DNA of 64,000 nt from Gammaproteobacteria bacterium (GCA_965601665.1 OZ271833.1:2146607-2210606), one strand, 5' to 3'. Positions 49,093 through 57,993 are shown, numbered from the stretch's first letter. The notes: generated by a model not told the origin, from the sequence alone. A program made the numbers and translations.

Positions 49093-49982
49093 TGTCTCAT
49101 CCGGAAACCCGAAACACCTTGTTCGTTGAACAGGCCGAAGTCGTACTGCACGATGCTTACCCTGAGCGCCAGTATCATATGCAACTGCGCGCACCGGAAA
49201 CGGCCCAGCGGGCCAAGGCAGGGCAGTTCGTACACATGCAGTGTCATCCAGGTCTGTTAATGCGGCGCCCGATGTCTATCATGCGTGCGAATGCCGAACA
49301 GCAAACCATCGATATTCTGTACAAGGTTCATGGTCAGGGCACCGATCTGTTGTCGACACGCACGCAGGGGGAAACGATTGATCTGATCGGACCGATTGGC
49401 CAACCCTTCAAGCTGGATGGATACAAACAGAGGCCTTTGTTGATTGGTGGAGGTGTCGGGATCCCGCCCATGGTGTTTTTGGCCGAGCATTTGAAACGAA
49501 CGCAACAACAGCTAAGCCCGTTGGTCATCATGGGCTCTGAGATTCCATTTCCATTTACAACGCGACCGTCGCAAATCATGCTGCCGGAACTCCCGGCTGA
49601 CGTGATTGCCTGCATGCCATTACTGGAGGACTGGGGGATCCCAACGCGGTTGACCAGCATGCAAAACTACCCGGGCTGCTTTCACGGATATGTGACTGAC
49701 CTGGCCCGCCACTGGCTTGACAATCTTGATGACAACCAGCGTAGTGAAGTTGAAATATTTACCTGCGGGCCGACACCCATGTTGAAAGCGGTAAGTCAGC
49801 TTGCCGGAGAATATAACCTGCCATGTCAGGTATCACTTGAAGAATACATGGCCTGTGCCGTGGGTGGCTGTGCAGGTTGTACAGTACTGGTTGATACTGA
49901 TAAAGGTCCGGCAATGAAACGCGTCTGTGTGGACGGGCCGGTGTTTGAATCCTCACACGTCAAGATGTTCCAGGAGTCATGA
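49092..49982 (+). CDS. PyrK-like FAD/NAD-binding oxidoreductase with a C-terminal [2Fe-2S] Cys cluster
   Basis: Ferredoxin-reductase-type FAD/NAD module plus CAVGGCAGC...C near the C-terminus. Confidence 0.65.
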   Translation: MSHPETRNTLFVEQAEVVLHDAYPERQYHMQLRAPETAQRAKAGQFVHMQCHPGLLMRRPMSIMRANAEQQTIDILYKVHGQGTDLLSTRTQGETIDLIGPIGQPFKLDGYKQRPLLIGGGVGIPPMVFLAEHLKRTQQQLSPLVIMGSEIPFPFTTRPSQIMLPELPADVIACMPLLEDWGIPTRLTSMQNYPGCFHGYVTDLARHWLDNLDDNQRSEVEIFTCGPTPMLKAVSQLAGEYNLPCQVSLEEYMACAVGGCAGCTVLVDTDKGPAMKRVCVDGPVFESSHVKMFQES

Positions 49983-50725
49983 CAGGCAATTCACGCCCTG
50001 TTCTAAGCTCACAAGCAGGCATATCTGGTCAACTGGAACAGCTGGTTAAAAAACATCTAGGCTCAAGCTTCGATAAACCGTATAGACACTTTAGTGAGGC
50101 TCTTTTTGAGCAGTTACGACAGGTTGTCGACAGGGTAAACCTGCCAATTATACTGGATGCGGGTTGCGGCAACGGTGACAGCAGTGCGCAGCTGGCAAAA
50201 GATTATCCTGATAACCTTGTTGTCGGCATTGATAAATCCCAATATCGGCTGAGCAAGTATCTTAATGGTGAAACGTTTTATCATAACAAGAATCTGTTTC
50301 TCGCCAGGGGTGATCTCGTTGATACTTGGCGCTACATCGCTGAATCCGGCTGGCGAGTAGACAAACAATATATTCTCTATCCAAACCCATGGCCCAAGGC
50401 AAACCAGGTCAAGCGACGCTGGCATGGGCACCCGGTGTTTGCGACGCTGGTGAACATGGCGCTACAGTTGGAGTTAAGGACAAACTGGAAAGTCTACGCC
50501 GACGAATTTCTTTTTGCCCTGCACTTGCTCAACAGGCAAGCAACGATAGAAACAGTATCACCGGCAGCGGCCATCAGCCCTTTCGAGCAGAAATACATGC
50601 AAAGCGAACATGTGCTATACCGTGTGACTACGCCGGTAAACGCAGTTCGTAAGTCAGGCCATCTGCGCTCTTCCCCGTACGGCCACGCTGCGACGAGAAG
50701 TAGAGCCGACTGCCATCGGGACTAA
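49979..50725 (+). CDS. SAM-dependent methyltransferase of the TrmB (tRNA m7G46) family
   Basis: SAM motif ILDAGCGNGD plus a YPNPWPKANQVKRRW box resembling the TrmB FPDPWHKARHNKRR motif. The 3' end overlaps the convergent gene by 98 nt. Confidence 0.55.
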   Translation: MTGNSRPVLSSQAGISGQLEQLVKKHLGSSFDKPYRHFSEALFEQLRQVVDRVNLPIILDAGCGNGDSSAQLAKDYPDNLVVGIDKSQYRLSKYLNGETFYHNKNLFLARGDLVDTWRYIAESGWRVDKQYILYPNPWPKANQVKRRWHGHPVFATLVNMALQLELRTNWKVYADEFLFALHLLNRQATIETVSPAAAISPFEQKYMQSEHVLYRVTTPVNAVRKSGHLRSSPYGHAATRSRADCHRD

Positions 50726-51752
50726 ACGCGGGCCCGGTAATTTCCGACAGGTCCTGGCCGTATATCTGAAGAAATACGTAGGGCGTGTATTGTTTATCAA
50801 GACCAATAATTTGCATGTTACCGCCATCTTCGGCGATCAATAATTCACCTGATGCCGACACCTCAATGTTATCAACGCCGGTCAATAGTGGCTGCGGGTA
50901 AGCAGACGCGGAGTAAATCCGGTTAATTGCACCGGTTGCAATCTGATAACACCAGACCGAGTTATCCAGCTTGGTGGTAAAGTAAATACTGCCCCTGTCA
51001 TAAACGATGCCTTCACCACCCATAAATCGGGCCGCGTCTTTGACCTGGTAACGAACCGGCAGGGTCTTTCCCGCGGGATCGGGTATCGGGACCCAGGTTA
51101 AGACCTGCCTATTGGTAACAGCAACCTCGAGTTTTCCACTTGCCAGGTTAGCTTGAACGTCAGGTATAAAGCGATACAGACAACCGTCCCTGACATCTTC
51201 CGTCATGTAGCAAACAGATGAGCCGGGATCGATAGCAACCGCCTCGTGATTAAACAGACCCATCATCGGACGCGCTACTGCCTCACGCTCGCCCAGCGGA
51301 TCGCATTCAAACACGCGCCCGTCATCGCCGTTTTCTTCACAGGAAAGCCAGGTCTGCCACGGCGTTTTACCGCCCGCACAGTTTCGCGATGTTCCGCGCA
51401 GGATGGAATAGGCGTCTATGGTTTCACCAGCAGCATTAAACCGTATTGCACCGACACCGCCCTGACCGTGCTCTAGTTCACTGTTGGAGACGTATATCCA
51501 GCCACCATCTGTGGTTGCAAAACAGGCGCCACCATCCGGGGCACCATGCCAGTTGTAGCTTGAAGAAGTCAGCACCGGTTTACTGCTTGCGGCGACCAGG
51601 CGCAGCTGGCAATCCGGCGGCAGCGCAACATTGTTTACTGTATCCAGAACCAGGGGCTTGTTGAAGGGTTTGGCTATCGTGCGCGGGGCAAGGGCAAGAC
51701 CGACCATGCCATACAATAAATTACCCAGGAGTTGTCTACGTGATAACTTCAT
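50628..51752 (-). CDS. Tat-exported PhoX-family (DUF839) beta-propeller protein, short form
   Basis: Twin-arginine signal MKLSRRQLLG and the PhoX-like motif GTSRNCAGGKTPWQTWLSCEEN. Confidence 0.55.
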   Translation of the reverse strand: MKLSRRQLLGNLLYGMVGLALAPRTIAKPFNKPLVLDTVNNVALPPDCQLRLVAASSKPVLTSSSYNWHGAPDGGACFATTDGGWIYVSNSELEHGQGGVGAIRFNAAGETIDAYSILRGTSRNCAGGKTPWQTWLSCEENGDDGRVFECDPLGEREAVARPMMGLFNHEAVAIDPGSSVCYMTEDVRDGCLYRFIPDVQANLASGKLEVAVTNRQVLTWVPIPDPAGKTLPVRYQVKDAARFMGGEGIVYDRGSIYFTTKLDNSVWCYQIATGAINRIYSASAYPQPLLTGVDNIEVSASGELLIAEDGGNMQIIGLDKQYTPYVFLQIYGQDLSEITGPAFSPDGSRLYFSSQRGRTGKSADGLTYELRLPA

Positions 51753-51785
51753 GGCAAACCAAAACCGAATGCAGTTACGGCTATT

Positions 51786-52199
51786 TTATGCCGGAAATGT
51801 TGCAGCGTATTTACTAATCCATTCCTGCGCGGCCTGTTCACTGGAAAGTGCGCGGCCCTCTGTGCGCTCAACCTCGTTACGATAATGCTCAATGTGGCAG
51901 AGTTGTTCAACCATGCGTAACAGAAACATATTTTGTTTACTGGTCAGAAATTCGACACCCACTTCGTAAGCCGTTTCATTTTGCCGACACCAGACAACCT
52001 GGCCCGTCATTTCAAAATCAGGGTCTACGCATTCTACCCGGATAGTTACGCTGGCCCCTAGCTCGACCGGGTGCGCGCTAATACAGGAAATACCGCCAAT
52101 ACTGACATTGTTGAGTGTACACAGGCCTATTTCAGGATCACCATCCAGCTCTTTTACCTGTATCGGAACGGATGCCGGGTGTCGTATAAACTCGCGCAT
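51786..52199 (-). CDS. Stand-alone PilZ domain c-di-GMP-binding protein
   Basis: RxxxR motif (REFIRHP) and the N/DxSxGG motif (NVSIGGIS). 137 aa. Confidence 0.75.
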   Translation of the reverse strand: MREFIRHPASVPIQVKELDGDPEIGLCTLNNVSIGGISCISAHPVELGASVTIRVECVDPDFEMTGQVVWCRQNETAYEVGVEFLTSKQNMFLLRMVEQLCHIEHYRNEVERTEGRALSSEQAAQEWISKYAATFPA

Positions 52200-52255
52200 C
52201 TTTTCAGTCTAGTCTGTTTGCGGCAAACCCACTATGAAAAAACAGGTTATGACAG

Positions 52256-54310
52256 TCACAGAAACAAGTATCGAACCGATAAACCGGCATAAATATTCAA
52301 CTCAGGCGCTGGTTCGAAGTAGCGGCTGCCAAACGCGTTTATCCTGACGTTGCCAATATATTCTTCATCAAAAAGATTATTAATACCGAAATAAGGTGTC
52401 AGTTCGACCCCGTCGATAACACCACTATAACCAAGTCGCAAGTTGGAAACACCGTACGGCCTGTTCTGTGCCGTGTTGTCATTATTAACAAAAAAATTGC
52501 TGACGTATTGAAAATCCATACTGGAAAAGAAGCCCGAAGGATGGGTGTAAGACCATTCGGTATAAAAGTTATGATCTGGCAAACCAGGTAACCTGTTGCC
52601 ATCACAACTGGCTACCCCGCACTCTGAGCCCGGAAAACTGTCAAAAGTAAAATCGTTATAAGTGTAGGACATCAAGATACTCAAGCCGGAAACCGGTATG
52701 AAAGAAGCTGTTGCCTCAACGCCTTTCCGGGTTGTGTCAGCATTGGCAAAAGCCGTACGCCCGTCAACATTAATCGTGTTGATGATCTCGTCATCAACAT
52801 CGATGTGGAACAAGGAAAGCTGATAATTTAATCGCGAAGTCGGTGATCCTTTTATGCCAACTTCATAGTTCAGCGCTTTCTGTGCGGAGATATCGGTAAA
52901 ACCACCTGGTGCGACGCCGGTTAACTCGGTAAAGGTTGGTGTTTCGAATACGCTGGAAACGTTAACAAAAGCATTCATTGCCGGGTTAACTTTCCATAAC
53001 AGACCGCCCATAGGGCTGACTTCTTCAAAATTCAATTCCGCTGAATCATCCCCATTGCCAAGAAACTGGTCCTCAACCTCCAGATCTACCTTGTCATAGC
53101 GGATACCGAGTGACAGTTCCAGGCGCTTTGTCAGGTCGGTTTCATTGCGGAAATAAATACCAATTGAATCGCCTTTTTCAAGCTGGTCCAATGCCAGCGC
53201 GCCCTGCGTACCGTTATTATTGGCATAGCGCTGCCTGTCATCTTCCTGCGTATCGATATCAAAACCAATCGTGGTGCGGTTGCTTAACCCAAAGATTTGG
53301 CTCCCAATATTGTACTGAGCACCACCACCAAACTGAAAACGGTCGAACTCTACCCAGCCATTTGGTGGTAAAGGCAACAGGCCCTGAAAGTTTCTTTGTA
53401 GATAATAGTTTCTTAATATCAGTTCCTGGTCAGGTGTAATCTGGCGACGATATGTCAGCCCGAGTTTCTGTTGATCGATATCTTCATTCGAATTCAGGTC
53501 AAGATTTCTATCCCTGGCCTGTCGGCGGTTATCTTCAACACTTGCCTGATCAAGGCCGCCCGGATCCTGCGCCACAGGTGCATCAAAGGCTGTCACTACA
53601 GCAGTAAAATCAGACTTGTTATCGATATCATAAATAAATTTTGAATTGAACTTGGTATTTCTGACGCGGCTGTGCTCGCGATACCCGGAGGTATCGAGAT
53701 GAGATAAATTAAAGAAATAGTTGAGCTTGCCGAGTTCGCCACCGGTCTTGATGTTTCCAATATGAGTCTGGTATTCACCAAGGCTATAGTTGGACTCTAT
53801 ATAAGGAGCAATATAATCACTATTGCCGGTAAAGAAATTCAGGACGCCACCGGAAGAACTGCCATATAAAGATGAAGCAGGTCCCTTCAACACCTCGATA
53901 CGTGTAATTGAATTAAGATCGATATCTTCAATTCCCCCCTGACCATCTACGGTAGTAAGAGGTATACCATCCTGGTATAGCTTTATTCCACGTGTACCGA
54001 AGTTAGCACGCGCACCAAAACCACGGATAGATATTTTCAAACTCTGGGCAAAATTATAGCGGTTTTGTAAAAACAGGCCGGGCAGTTGCACCAGTGTTTC
54101 ATCTATACCCAGTCTTTGTTTACCATTCGTGATATCAACACTATCGACCACGCCAACCGACGCGGGAACGCCGTACAGTGATTTATCAACGCGGGTGGCT
54201 GTGACGGTAATATCTTCCAGGGTCTGTACCTGTGTATCCGCCTTTGCAGGGGGGATTGAAAAGACACTGACAGCAGTTAGAAATAGAATGCTGCGCATAT
54301 TGTTAGACAT
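52256..54310 (-). CDS. TonB-dependent outer-membrane receptor
   Basis: Signal peptide, TonB-box-like DITVTATR, plug and 22-strand barrel, and an aromatic C-terminus. 684 aa. Confidence 0.85.
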   Translation of the reverse strand: MSNNMRSILFLTAVSVFSIPPAKADTQVQTLEDITVTATRVDKSLYGVPASVGVVDSVDITNGKQRLGIDETLVQLPGLFLQNRYNFAQSLKISIRGFGARANFGTRGIKLYQDGIPLTTVDGQGGIEDIDLNSITRIEVLKGPASSLYGSSSGGVLNFFTGNSDYIAPYIESNYSLGEYQTHIGNIKTGGELGKLNYFFNLSHLDTSGYREHSRVRNTKFNSKFIYDIDNKSDFTAVVTAFDAPVAQDPGGLDQASVEDNRRQARDRNLDLNSNEDIDQQKLGLTYRRQITPDQELILRNYYLQRNFQGLLPLPPNGWVEFDRFQFGGGAQYNIGSQIFGLSNRTTIGFDIDTQEDDRQRYANNNGTQGALALDQLEKGDSIGIYFRNETDLTKRLELSLGIRYDKVDLEVEDQFLGNGDDSAELNFEEVSPMGGLLWKVNPAMNAFVNVSSVFETPTFTELTGVAPGGFTDISAQKALNYEVGIKGSPTSRLNYQLSLFHIDVDDEIINTINVDGRTAFANADTTRKGVEATASFIPVSGLSILMSYTYNDFTFDSFPGSECGVASCDGNRLPGLPDHNFYTEWSYTHPSGFFSSMDFQYVSNFFVNNDNTAQNRPYGVSNLRLGYSGVIDGVELTPYFGINNLFDEEYIGNVRINAFGSRYFEPAPELNIYAGLSVRYLFL

Positions 54311-54523
54311 ATCGCTCCTCTCATTCTTCTTTACGCTGTTTTATATTTATCAATGAGTTAACAGCAATATTTATACCGCATCACCAGTTATTGGCCGGGT
54401 GCAGATTTTATTTTTTGAAACAACAGTTTAGTTTAAAGCGCGGGGACGGTTATTTACAACAGGAGGCACTCATATCCAAATAGCTGCACGTTATGAACCA
54501 GTGCAGCTATTTCCGGTAAGACT

Positions 54524-55579
54524 TTAGCCAAAGTTGATCTTGGCTTCGAGGTTGGTCCTTGAGTCGGCGTTACTCAAGGCTTCCTCAAGTTCGATACGTT
54601 CTTCCTTGTAGAGGTTATACAGCGCCATATCGAAGGTTTGCATCCCTGCCTGACCACTCTCGGACATGGCAACCTTGATTTCATCAATGTCGCCTTTCAA
54701 AATCAGTTCGGCAATGTGCGGCGTGTTGATCATTATCTCAATTGCCGCACAACGACGACCATCAACAGCCATGACCAGACGCTGCGAGATCACCGCACGC
54801 AGGTTTAATGACAGGTCCATGAATAATTGTTTATGCATGTCCTGCGGGAACATGTTGATAACGCGTTCCATTGCCTGGTTAGCGTTGTTCGCATGCAGTG
54901 TAGATATAGCAAGGTGGCCGGTGTTACTCAGCTCCAGCGCTGCTTCCATCGTGATACGGTCACGAATCTCACCAATAAGAATGACATCCGGTGCTTCACG
55001 CAAGGATGCCTTCAATGCATTCGCATACGACATGGTATCAACGCCGACCTCACGCTGATTGACGATTGATTTCTTGTTTGGATGACTGAACTCAACCGGG
55101 TCCTCGATGGTAAGGATATGACCGGACATGCGTTCATTGCGATGGTTTATCATTGCGGCCAGGGTTGTAGATTTACCGGAACCGGTCGCGCCCACCATGA
55201 GGATTAAACCACGCTTGTGCAGGATCAAGTCACTAAGAATCTCAGGCAGGCCAAGCTGATCTACTGTTGGAATAACATTTGGGATCTGGCGCAATACCAT
55301 GCCGACTTCACCACGCTGTCGGAAGACATTGACACGGAAACGCGCCATTTTCTCAAGCGAGATCGCAAAATCGCATTCCATGGTGTCTTCAAAATGCTTG
55401 ATCTGGTGATCGTTCATAATGCCATACGCGGCGGCCTTGGTTAGCTCGCCGGTTAATACGGTCTTGCCCACCGGGTTTTGGTTACCCTCAATCTTTACTT
55501 TTACCGGGGAATTGACGGTGAAAAAGACGTCGGAGGCGCCCTTGTCAACCATTAACTTCAAGTAAGGTGTGATATCCAT
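54524..55579 (-). CDS. Type IV pilus retraction ATPase paralog (PilU-like, third PilT-family gene in tandem)
   Basis: Walker A GATGSGKSTT, Asp box, His box. Lacks the AIRNLIRE signature (has HIAELILKG). Confidence 0.8.
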   Translation of the reverse strand: MDITPYLKLMVDKGASDVFFTVNSPVKVKIEGNQNPVGKTVLTGELTKAAAYGIMNDHQIKHFEDTMECDFAISLEKMARFRVNVFRQRGEVGMVLRQIPNVIPTVDQLGLPEILSDLILHKRGLILMVGATGSGKSTTLAAMINHRNERMSGHILTIEDPVEFSHPNKKSIVNQREVGVDTMSYANALKASLREAPDVILIGEIRDRITMEAALELSNTGHLAISTLHANNANQAMERVINMFPQDMHKQLFMDLSLNLRAVISQRLVMAVDGRRCAAIEIMINTPHIAELILKGDIDEIKVAMSESGQAGMQTFDMALYNLYKEERIELEEALSNADSRTNLEAKINFG

Positions 55580-55614: not shown

Positions 55615-56781
55615 TTAACGCATCAGGCCTTTTTCTTCATCGGTCTCATCAAGAGTCAGGTGGTCAAGTCCTTCGAGCTTGTCCTTGCCCTTTGAGTCTT
55701 TGCCTTCCAGTTTAATGCGTAGACGCAGTTCGTTCATTGAATCCGCAGATCGTAGCGCATCTTCATAGGAAATCCTGTCCGCCTCGTACAGATCAAACAA
55801 CGCCTGGTCAAACGTCTTCATGCCAAGCTCGTTTGACTTCGCCATGATGGCCTTGATCTCATGTACCTCGCCTTTCAGGATCAGATCCGCGATCAACGGT
55901 GAATTCAACAGGATTTCAATCGCGGCCACACGGCCCTTGCCGTCCGGTGTCTTTAACAAACGCTGCGAGATAACCCCTTTCAGGTTCAGGGACAAGTCCA
56001 TCAACAACTGTTGCTTACGCTCTTCCGGGAAGAAGTTGATGATTCGATCCAGTGCCTGGTTGGAACTGTTTGCGTGCAGTGTGGCCATGGCAAGGTGACC
56101 GGTTTCAGCAAAGGCGATACCGAACTCCATGGTTTCACGGTCACGAATCTCACCCAGCAGGATCACATCGGGCGCCTGGCGCAGCGTGTTTTTCAGCGCG
56201 ATATCCCAGTCATCGGTATCAACACCCACTTCGCGCTGCATGATGACGCAGTTCTTGTGTGGGTGGACGTATTCAATCGGGTCTTCGATGGTAATGATGT
56301 GGCCATAGCTGTTGCGGTTGCGATAATCGATCATAGCAGCCAGCGATGTCGATTTACCGGAGCCGGTACCACCGACCATGATAACAAGGCCGTTCTTGGT
56401 CATGACCACGTCTTTCATTACTTCCGGCAGGCCAAGTTTTTCTATTGTTGGCACCTCGGTTTCAATCACGCGCAATACCATGCCACAGTAGGTTTGCTGC
56501 ACGAAGGCGTTGGCGCGGAAACGGCCAATGCCAGCCGGCGCCACAGCAAAGTTACATTCCTTGGTTGCCTCGAACTCCTTCAATTGCTTGTCGTTCATGA
56601 TGGCATACGTCAACGCCTTGGTATTCTCGGCGCTAAGCTCGGTCTTGGATACCGGCGTGACCTTGCCGTGCACCTTGATCGCGGGTGGAAAGCCAACAGT
56701 AATAAACAAATCTGACCCCTTCTTCTCAATCATGAGCTTGAGGAGGTCACGCATAAATTTTATCGCCTGTTCTCTTTCCAT
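55615..56781 (-). CDS. pilU: Type IV pilus ATPase PilU
   Basis: 388 aa with an extended acidic C-terminus. Walker A GGTGSGKSTS, and no AIRNLIRE motif. Confidence 0.85.
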   Translation of the reverse strand: MEREQAIKFMRDLLKLMIEKKGSDLFITVGFPPAIKVHGKVTPVSKTELSAENTKALTYAIMNDKQLKEFEATKECNFAVAPAGIGRFRANAFVQQTYCGMVLRVIETEVPTIEKLGLPEVMKDVVMTKNGLVIMVGGTGSGKSTSLAAMIDYRNRNSYGHIITIEDPIEYVHPHKNCVIMQREVGVDTDDWDIALKNTLRQAPDVILLGEIRDRETMEFGIAFAETGHLAMATLHANSSNQALDRIINFFPEERKQQLLMDLSLNLKGVISQRLLKTPDGKGRVAAIEILLNSPLIADLILKGEVHEIKAIMAKSNELGMKTFDQALFDLYEADRISYEDALRSADSMNELRLRIKLEGKDSKGKDKLEGLDHLTLDETDEEKGLMR

Positions 56782-56958: not shown

Positions 56959-57993
56959 TTAGAAGTTGTCCTTGTTCGCTGCTTTCGACATGGCTTCCTG
57001 TCGCGTAACGACATTCTTGGCAACCAGTTGTTGCAGGTTCTGATCCAGTGTCTGCATACCAAACTGCTGACCGGTCTGGATTGCCGAATACATCTGCGCA
57101 ATCTTGTTTTCGCGGATCAGGTTACGTATCGCCGGTGTACCGATCATGATCTCGTGCGCGGCAACACGGCCACCGCCCTGTTTCTTGAGTAGCGTTTGCG
57201 AAATAACGGCCCGGAGTGATTCTGACAACATCGCGCGTACCATGTCTTTTTCCTCGGCCGGGAAGACGTCAACCACGCGGTCGATAGTCTTGGCCGCGGA
57301 ACTGGTATGCAATGTACCGAACACAAGGTGACCGGTTTCCGCTGCAGACAGTGCCAGGCGAATCGTTTCAAGGTCACGCATTTCCCCCACGAGGATAACA
57401 TCCGGGTCTTCACGCAGGGCCGAGCGTAACGCCTCGTTAAAGCCCAGCGTGTCACGGTGGACCTCACGCTGGTTAATCAAACATTTCTTACTTTCATGCA
57501 CAAATTCAATCGGGTCTTCAACAGTCAGGATATGACCGTACTCGGTTTCATTCTTGTGGTTCACCATCGCTGCCAGCGTGGTGGACTTGCCCGAACCTGT
57601 CGGCCCGGTAACCAGTACCACGCCACGCGGGAAGTCAGCTATTTGTTCAAATATCTTGGGGGCATTTAATTGCTCAAGCGACAGAATCTCGGAAGGGATC
57701 GTTCTGAATACCGCACCGGCACCACGGTTCTGGTTGAAGGCGTTAACACGAAAGCGGGCAAGACCGGGGACCTCGAATGAAAAGTCGCACTCAAGAAACT
57801 CTTCAAAATCCTTGCGCTGTTTGTCATTCATAATGTCGTACACCATGTCATGTACGTCTTTATGATCCAGTGACGGCACATTGATACGTCTGACGTCACC
57901 ATCAACACGAATCATGGGTGGCAATCCCGCGGATAAATGCAAATCGGAACAGCCGTTTTTAACCCCGAATGCCAAAAGCTCACCAATGTCCAT
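56959..57993 (-). CDS. pilT: Twitching motility ATPase PilT
   Basis: 344 aa with Walker A GPTGSGKSTT and the canonical PilT signature AIRNLIRE. Confidence 0.9.
   Translation of the reverse strand: MDIGELLAFGVKNGCSDLHLSAGLPPMIRVDGDVRRINVPSLDHKDVHDMVYDIMNDKQRKDFEEFLECDFSFEVPGLARFRVNAFNQNRGAGAVFRTIPSEILSLEQLNAPKIFEQIADFPRGVVLVTGPTGSGKSTTLAAMVNHKNETEYGHILTVEDPIEFVHESKKCLINQREVHRDTLGFNEALRSALREDPDVILVGEMRDLETIRLALSAAETGHLVFGTLHTSSAAKTIDRVVDVFPAEEKDMVRAMLSESLRAVISQTLLKKQGGGRVAAHEIMIGTPAIRNLIRENKIAQMYSAIQTGQQFGMQTLDQNLQQLVAKNVVTRQEAMSKAANKDNF

Follow-up and report, generated by a model that had tools for sequence, protein, structure and literature searches.

The stretch of DNA under study, hereafter the window, comprises 64,000 nucleotides (nt) from Gammaproteobacteria bacterium (GCA_965601665.1 OZ271833.1:2146607-2210606) and carries, on its minus strand, three successive open reading frames (ORFs) for a TonB-dependent outer-membrane receptor, a stand-alone PilZ-domain protein and a short protein of the PhoX family with a twin-arginine signal (Table 1). 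The spacers measure 56 nt between the receptor and PilZ genes and 33 nt between the PilZ and PhoX-like genes. A previous interpretation made from the nucleotide sequence alone (the sequence-only reading) had described the same three co-oriented genes and had postulated that they constitute an operon, in which the second messenger cyclic diguanylate (c-di-GMP) gates a nutrient-scavenging module via the PilZ protein. All three ORFs were found at the coordinates given there, and the short gaps are real. Same-strand genes with short spacers are, however, commonplace in bacteria and not by themselves statistically notable. From our point of view, the three genes come from known families, are independent of each other and became neighbours via a variable slot in a conserved gene backbone rather than being parts of a c-di-GMP-gated uptake unit, a reading to which we assign a probability of about 0.62.

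On the same strand and upstream of the receptor gene lie three tandem genes for ATPases of the PilT/PilU family, namely pilT, pilU and a third paralogue for which we coined the name pilU2, each matching the PilT/PilU model TIGR01420 with 430-512 bits; they are followed, in divergent orientation, by yggS, proC and yggT. The downstream side is convergent and contains genes for a trmB-like methyltransferase and a pyrK-like protein, then pyrC', pyrB and pyrR, and finally algH/yqgE, tonB and gshB. The overall backbone order can hence be written as gshB-tonB-algH-ruvX-pyrR-pyrB-pyrC'-pyrK-like-trmB-like, convergent with pilT-pilU-pilU2, then yggS-proC-yggT. In this old conserved backbone, the stretch from pilU to the pyr genes is a variable slot, and the receptor, PilZ and PhoX-like genes are located there.

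The comparison of slot contents covered 80 genomic loci surrounding homologues of the PhoX-like protein and 80 metagenomic loci surrounding those of the PilZ protein, as well as the contexts of specific close homologues. The window-type backbone is present in L001, L162-172 and L084-088, and at least four related lineages (L001, L165-167, L168-170 and L171-172) share the complete trio, each with an identical flanking backbone. Since this backbone is as conserved as the trio itself, shared ancestry can explain the recurrence. Moreover, none of the junctions of the postulated operon is intact in all close relatives. L162-164, the closest relative that was found (PilZ protein 85% identical), has no receptor gene, and its PilZ gene begins 31 nt after pilU2; the receptor is likewise absent in L002, L084-086, L088 and L090. 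In five loci (L002, L084, L085, L087 and L088), the gene of a 541-amino-acid (aa) NAD-malic enzyme is located between the PilZ and PhoX-like genes (e.g., L084 8252-9877), where it starts only ~13-15 nt after the PilZ gene, and the latter seems to be co-transcribed with whichever gene is downstream. Directly after the PhoX-like gene, a sodium/phosphate (Na/Pi) cotransporter gene (PF02690) is found in L001 (5238-6899), L165 (8559-10223), L168 (8658-10322) and L171 (9791-11455), which is absent from the window.

pilU2 is conserved across the clade and represents the usual immediate upstream neighbour of the PilZ gene, which it directly precedes in L162-164, L002, L084-086, L088, L090, L093, L094 and L131. 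Two of these loci, L094 and L131, belong to a deeper clade (~47-49% PilZ identity) in which the pilU2-PilZ pair is kept, the convergent pyr genes come next and no PhoX-like gene is present; L093 shows the same pilU2-PilZ order, with the locus ending at PilZ.

At greater distances the association dissolves. None of the 79 more distant PhoX-like loci, which derive from Actinomycetota, Myxococcota, Nitrosomonas and diverse gammaproteobacteria, contains a PilZ-profile match or a homologue of the window receptor within 8 kb, and their neighbours are unrelated housekeeping genes, with the exception of a PhoD gene nearby in three of them (L034, L037 and L062). Conversely, neither a PhoX-like gene nor the receptor was found near PilZ in ~70 more distant loci of the PilZ family. 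The linkage thus ends where whole-backbone synteny ends, and no adjacency beyond synteny was seen. In these distant loci, the PilZ gene is situated directly downstream of htpG in 14 cases and upstream of a gene for an FAD-dependent oxidoreductase in 13 (e.g., L122 6062-7993 and L109 601-1668), the other contexts being assorted; the htpG/FAD oxidoreductase context represents a second recurrent neighbourhood of the PilZ family. As the PilZ family never adjoins a PhoX-like gene outside the clade, a role of the PilZ protein as dedicated twin-arginine translocation (Tat) chaperone for the PhoX-like protein was ruled out. An apparent in-frame PilZ::PhoX-like fusion of 536 aa (P0052, L001 3537-5147, from a metagenome-assembled genome) was also rejected as a Rosetta-stone case, since it reads through the spacer and leaves the Tat signal internal; it is probably due to a lost stop codon or to an assembly or gene-calling artefact.

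The transcriptional signals differ between the window and its relatives. No terminator-like site was found in the window between 50300 and 54700, and both the receptor-PilZ and the PilZ-PhoX-like spacers fold no better than shuffled sequence, so that, in this genome, a common strand and short gaps are combined with the lack of an internal terminator, as expected of an operon. In relatives, in contrast, strong intrinsic terminators separate the receptor and PilZ genes in at least three lineages, namely L165 (15-bp stem followed by a T-run, z=-4.75), L001 (z=-7.95) and L087 (z=-3.05), and conserved signals of co-transcription are therefore missing there; in L086, a terminator is located between pilU2 and the PilZ gene. 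Upstream of the receptor gene, an otherwise diverged intergenic sequence contains a conserved block, GGTATAAATATTGCTGTTAACTCATTG, which is also found upstream of the receptor orthologues in L165, L168 and L171 and, in part, in L001 and L087. By eye, it holds a TATAAAT element resembling a -10 box, and it shows no match to the Fur, PhoB or Zur consensus; it likely serves the receptor gene itself as promoter or operator region. Taken together, the terminators after the receptor gene in relatives and the conserved upstream block suggest that the receptor gene normally forms its own transcription unit. Because the window lineage lacks the terminator seen after the receptor gene in relatives, the three genes may be co-transcribed in the window genome, which could then be an accident of history without functional coupling; co-transcription is most plausible here for the PilZ and PhoX-like genes. 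Of the operon claim, the part concerning the window may hence stand, whereas the terminators and the broken junctions argue against a conserved unit.

The hairpin directly after the pilU2 stop codon, which has an 11-nt loop and a weak U-tract and was not called by the consensus terminator scan, is a possible end of the pilT-pilU-pilU2 transcript. The weak sigma-70-like match within the 3' end of the receptor gene lies ~155 nt upstream of the PilZ gene, and such sites are fewer in this region than in shuffled sequence. Pho, Fur and Zur boxes of the Escherichia coli-type consensus did not exceed the level of shuffled sequence, either in the whole window or upstream of the three genes, which left the Pho or Fur boxes that had been proposed as a check upstream of the receptor gene without a counterpart. 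A search of positions 50000-55000 against Rfam, including riboswitches of the c-di-GMP and cobalamin types, gave no matches.

Table 1. Genes and candidate regulatory features of the locus, numbered from the first nucleotide of the window
Feature	Position	Strand	Basis or remark
TonB-dependent outer-membrane receptor, 684 aa, YncD/PqqU-like subfamily	52256-54310	-	Plug and TonB_dep_Rec_b-barrel matches
Stand-alone PilZ-domain protein, 137 aa, barrel plus C-terminal two-helix extension, presumed cytoplasmic	51786-52199	-	PF07238
Short PhoX-family (PF05787/DUF839) beta-propeller, twin-arginine signal, 374 aa; probable periplasmic metallo-phosphohydrolase	50628-51752	-	PF05787
pilT	56959-57993	-	TIGR01420
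pilU	55615-56781	-	TIGR01420
pilU2, third PilT/PilU paralogue, 351 aa	54524-55579	-	TIGR01420
Conserved ~27-nt block GGTATAAATATTGCTGTTAACTCATTG upstream of receptor gene	54351-54377	-	Conserved across otherwise diverged intergenic sequence
Hairpin directly after pilU2 stop codon	54478-54512	-	-18.3 kcal/mol, z=-3.2 vs shuffles
Sigma-70-like promoter match TTAATA-17-TATATT in 3' end of receptor gene	52355-52383	-	9/12 positions, consensus only

The identity of the receptor as a TonB-dependent transporter is well supported by its Plug (PF07715, E=1.8e-17) and barrel (PF00593, E=9e-47) domains, and a signal peptide together with a TonB-box-like LEDITVTA can be recognized by eye at its N-terminus. 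The best-scoring NCBIfam model is PqqU (NF041535), to which residues 42-683 align over model positions 10-675 with 396 bits; given a curated equivalog cut-off of 1200 bits, the protein falls short of being a PqqU equivalog. A link to pyrroloquinoline quinone (PQQ), in which a PqqU-like receptor would be paired with a periplasmic propeller, was ruled out on these grounds and because the propeller belongs to the PhoX family and not to the PQQ-dehydrogenase family. Three observations set the receptor gene apart from its neighbours and speak for the independence of the trio's members, namely (i) its absence in the nearest relative; (ii) the existence of orthologues with 70% and 66% identity that stand alone in unrelated contexts; and (iii) its guanine-plus-cytosine content of 0.453, which is the lowest among the 43 genes of the window (z=-2.4). 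A more distant homologue with 50% identity (P0327, 836 aa) contains an additional cytochrome c domain (PF13442), which is unusual for a TonB-dependent receptor.

The PilZ protein matches PF07238 with 52.3 bits (cut-off 22.5), and both c-di-GMP-binding motifs, R2-x-x-x-R6 and N31-x-S33-x-x-G36, are intact, in agreement with what had been reported from the sequence. The 18 aligned family members all share R2, R6, N31 and G36, and S33 is conserved in ≥90% of them. The family is small and well defined; the protein search gave 275 matches, and at least 485 relatives are encoded on metagenome contigs. In the AlphaFold2 (AF2) model (predicted local distance difference test score, pLDDT, 77), a beta-barrel is followed by two helices (88-114 and 120-134), and Foldseek relates the model to the c-di-GMP-bound PilZ domains of Alg44, YcgR and BcsA with template modelling (TM) scores of 0.5-0.65 and a probability of 1.0; when the PilZ profile was searched against PDB sequences, no solved relative reached significance. 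The C-terminal extension, RMxEQxCHIEHYRNEV...EGR...AAxEWIxKYAxxFP, is conserved among the 18 family members to a degree that exceeds that of the barrel. The family alignment also reveals that H7, C101, H102 and H105 are invariant and C71 almost so; they could indicate a site that responds to metals or redox state, or else a surface to which a partner binds. As the sequence contains neither a signal peptide nor a membrane segment, the protein is presumably cytoplasmic.

The third protein matches PF05787 with 118.7 bits (cut-off 24), but its best stretch covers only profile positions 153-362 of 515, so that the full-length PhoX architecture is not present. As read from the sequence, its N-terminus, MKLSRRQLL, includes a twin-arginine motif (S-R-R-Q-L-L, residues 5-10) with a hydrophobic stretch behind it, and SRRxF is kept in homologues, which is in line with the Tat export of a short PhoX/DUF839 protein that the sequence-only reading had recognized. 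More than 7,400 homologues of ~375 aa were detected, and they come from gammaproteobacteria, Nitrosomonas, Streptomyces and other Actinomycetota, and Myxococcota, so that the short length is a trait of the family and not the result of truncation. The AF2 model built with 19 homologues (pLDDT 89.6, predicted TM score 0.88) is an all-beta propeller, for which the six-bladed propellers Drp35, SMP30 and DFPase rank above PhoX in Foldseek. The motif N124-CAGGKTPWQTWLSCEE-N141 is present (residues 124-141, NCAGGKTPWQTWLSCEEN), and the family profile detects the solved Pseudomonas fluorescens PhoX (4amf/3zwu) with E=5e-13 via the segments NCAGGKTPW..LSCEEN, FNHEA and TEDxxDG. C125, E139, E140, H169, E170, E185 and D186 are invariant in the 19 sequences, and C125, E139/E140, H169/E170 and E185/D186 align to C179, E193/E194, H272/E273 and D291/D292 of PhoX. 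PhoX D292, which corresponds to D186 in this alignment, has been named an active-site residue (PMC11098088). As such, the model shows the expected propeller, and candidate counterparts of the active-site Cys and of some acidic metal ligands were aligned, whereas those of R385 and of the ligands in the C-terminal half could not be located.

It has been reported that PF05787 pulls in many paralogues of uncertain function (PMC12594817), and a role as metallophosphatase is hence likely rather than proven; the protein is probably an Fe/Ca phosphohydrolase. A role in phosphate metabolism is supported by the conserved motif residues, by PhoD in 3/79 loci and by the Na/Pi cotransporter in four lineages, the position of which next to the PhoX-like gene we take as a contextual hint. 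On the opposite strand, the convergent trmB-like ORF (49979-50725) encodes 248 aa in the window compared to 218-221 aa in relatives, and its additional C-terminal tail overlaps the PhoX-like gene by 98 nt, which suggests that the stop codon was shifted or lost or that the mechanical ORF call is too long.

The PilZ gene is the stable occupant of the slot, following pilU2 in two clades, and the genes for the receptor, the malic enzyme, the PhoX-like protein and the Na/Pi cotransporter are variably present around it. From what is known of their families, the three proteins most likely work as follows. The receptor would import a substrate across the outer membrane by TonB-derived energy, its transcription being driven by its own conserved upstream region. 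In the cytoplasm, the PilZ protein would bind c-di-GMP via RxxxR and NxSxxG and signal to a partner through its conserved C-terminal helical hairpin. The PhoX-like protein would fold around its metal cofactor in the same compartment, be exported via Tat and hydrolyse phosphoesters in the periplasm; in several relatives, the phosphate set free could be imported by the adjacent Na/Pi cotransporter.

Several points weigh against such independence. The window trio lacks a terminator between its genes, and a single transcript is possible; in the close clade, the PilZ and PhoX-like genes are never more than two genes apart; and at least five lineages have the complete trio. Some selective reason for keeping the PilZ gene, the PhoX-like gene or the whole trio together is thus conceivable. 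We also count on this side that no experimentally characterised member of the short PhoX subfamily was found.

The gated operon as originally postulated, i.e., one nutrient-scavenging unit of receptor, PilZ and PhoX-like protein under c-di-GMP control, would be in accordance with the co-orientation, the 56- and 33-nt gaps and the terminator-free window, with the intact motifs of the PilZ protein, and with the occurrence of the trio in L001 and L165-172. It is difficult to reconcile with the terminators after the receptor gene in relatives, with a receptor that is absent from the closest relative and stands alone elsewhere, with the malic enzyme insertions in five loci, with a linkage that was not seen outside the clade and with the failure to find a Pho or Fur box. 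In addition, since the PilZ protein carries no export signal and its supposed targets would reside in the outer membrane and the periplasm, direct gating is topologically implausible. We consequently regard this model as most improbable, and the claim of c-di-GMP gating was not borne out. At the regulatory level, phosphate and c-di-GMP are known to be connected, e.g., in Pseudomonas and Vibrio, where the turnover of c-di-GMP is under Pho control; were the gated operon real, it would represent a new mode of second-messenger control over nutrient uptake. One could also speculate that the PilZ gene heads a true unit of PilZ-(malic enzyme)-PhoX-like-(Na/Pi cotransporter) after the three retraction ATPase genes, in which a hitherto undescribed c-di-GMP effector would act via its unusually conserved hairpin on PilT/PilU-type motors or another conserved cytoplasmic partner and thereby link surface behaviour with phosphate scavenging, but we consider this very unlikely.

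A different grouping would be a Pho-controlled set for phosphate acquisition that consists of the receptor and the PhoX-like protein, joined in relatives by the Na/Pi cotransporter, with PilZ as a bystander. The cotransporter gene directly after the PhoX-like gene in L001 and L165-172, the proximity of PhoD and PhoX-like genes in L034, L037 and L062, and the induction of PF05787 proteins by phosphate limitation in Nodularia (PMC9846622) are compatible with this idea, yet no Pho box above chance precedes any of the three genes, in relatives the receptor gene is followed by a terminator of its own and can occur apart from the PhoX-like gene, the window lacks the cotransporter, and PF05787 is broad enough to include the uncertain paralogues mentioned above (PMC12594817). 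Such a set thus appears rather unlikely to us. The PilT/PilU ATPases are the most persistent neighbours of the PilZ protein, which provides a modest lead toward pilus control, and the PilZ protein could accordingly be imagined as part of a pilus-retraction cluster, in which it would serve as c-di-GMP receptor on PilT, PilU, PilU2 or another component of the type IV pilus, with the receptor and the PhoX-like protein as passengers. The pilU2-PilZ adjacency persists to ~47-49% PilZ identity and also where no PhoX-like gene is present, the gap amounts to just 31 nt in L162, and control of type IV pilus extension by PilZ-domain proteins through the ATPase PilB is established (PMC8389850; PMC11461919). 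On the other hand, in most of the more distant PilZ loci the neighbours are HtpG, the FAD oxidoreductase or other genes and no pil genes are present, L086 has a terminator between pilU2 and PilZ, the syntenic backbone as a whole may make the adjacency a matter of ancestry, and a PilZ protein with PilT or PilU as binding partner did not emerge from our literature search. We therefore consider this possibility tentative and, on balance, unlikely, and prefer three unrelated genes brought together in a variable slot.

Overall, the comparison suggests ordinary drift in gene order, and the locus can be read mainly as a caution that closely spaced genes with an appealing mix of domains are not yet a module. 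It also provides two modest leads, namely a small and well-defined subfamily of stand-alone PilZ proteins with a very conserved C-terminal extension, and a very large subfamily of PhoX-like proteins of ~375 aa, which matters for counts of phosphatase genes in metagenomes that are based on PF05787.

Compared with known systems, the backbone corresponds to the old gammaproteobacterial neighbourhood pilT-pilU ... pyrC'-pyrB-pyrR-ruvX-yqgE-tonB-gshB, of which Pseudomonas aeruginosa PA0393-PA0407 is an example; the window backbone genes share its order and orientation, and the difference lies in what fills the slot, as the window has pilU2 and the receptor, PilZ, PhoX-like and trmB-like genes between pilU and the pyr genes. 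The receptor resembles YncD/PqqU, its best NCBIfam model, in an almost end-to-end alignment, but is a relative that scores below the equivalog level. With canonical c-di-GMP-binding PilZ domains (Alg44, the C-terminal domain of YcgR, BcsA and MapZ), the PilZ protein has PF07238, RxxxR plus D/NxSxxG and a predicted six-stranded barrel in common, whereas it is a stand-alone protein of 137 aa with its own strongly conserved two-helix extension. The eponymous PilZ, whose partner is the extension ATPase PilB, is not known to carry the c-di-GMP-binding motifs. Like the PilZ-FimX-PilB complex of Xanthomonas and Pseudomonas, the locus encodes a small PilZ-fold protein in the context of type IV pili (PMC8389850; PMC11461919), but the motifs of the window protein are intact and its neighbours are the retraction-type ATPases PilT and PilU. 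Finally, the PhoX-like protein shares with P. fluorescens PhoX (3ZWU/4AMF) a PF05787 score above threshold, the twin-arginine signal, a modelled beta-propeller, the NCxGGxTPWxTxLxCEEN motif including the Cys aligned to Cys179, and conserved HE and (E/D)D segments; it differs in its 374 aa as opposed to 588-592 aa in the solved PhoX chains, to which HMMER aligns only short segments of the window family. As such, the locus requires no new kind of system, and all three proteins belong to known families.

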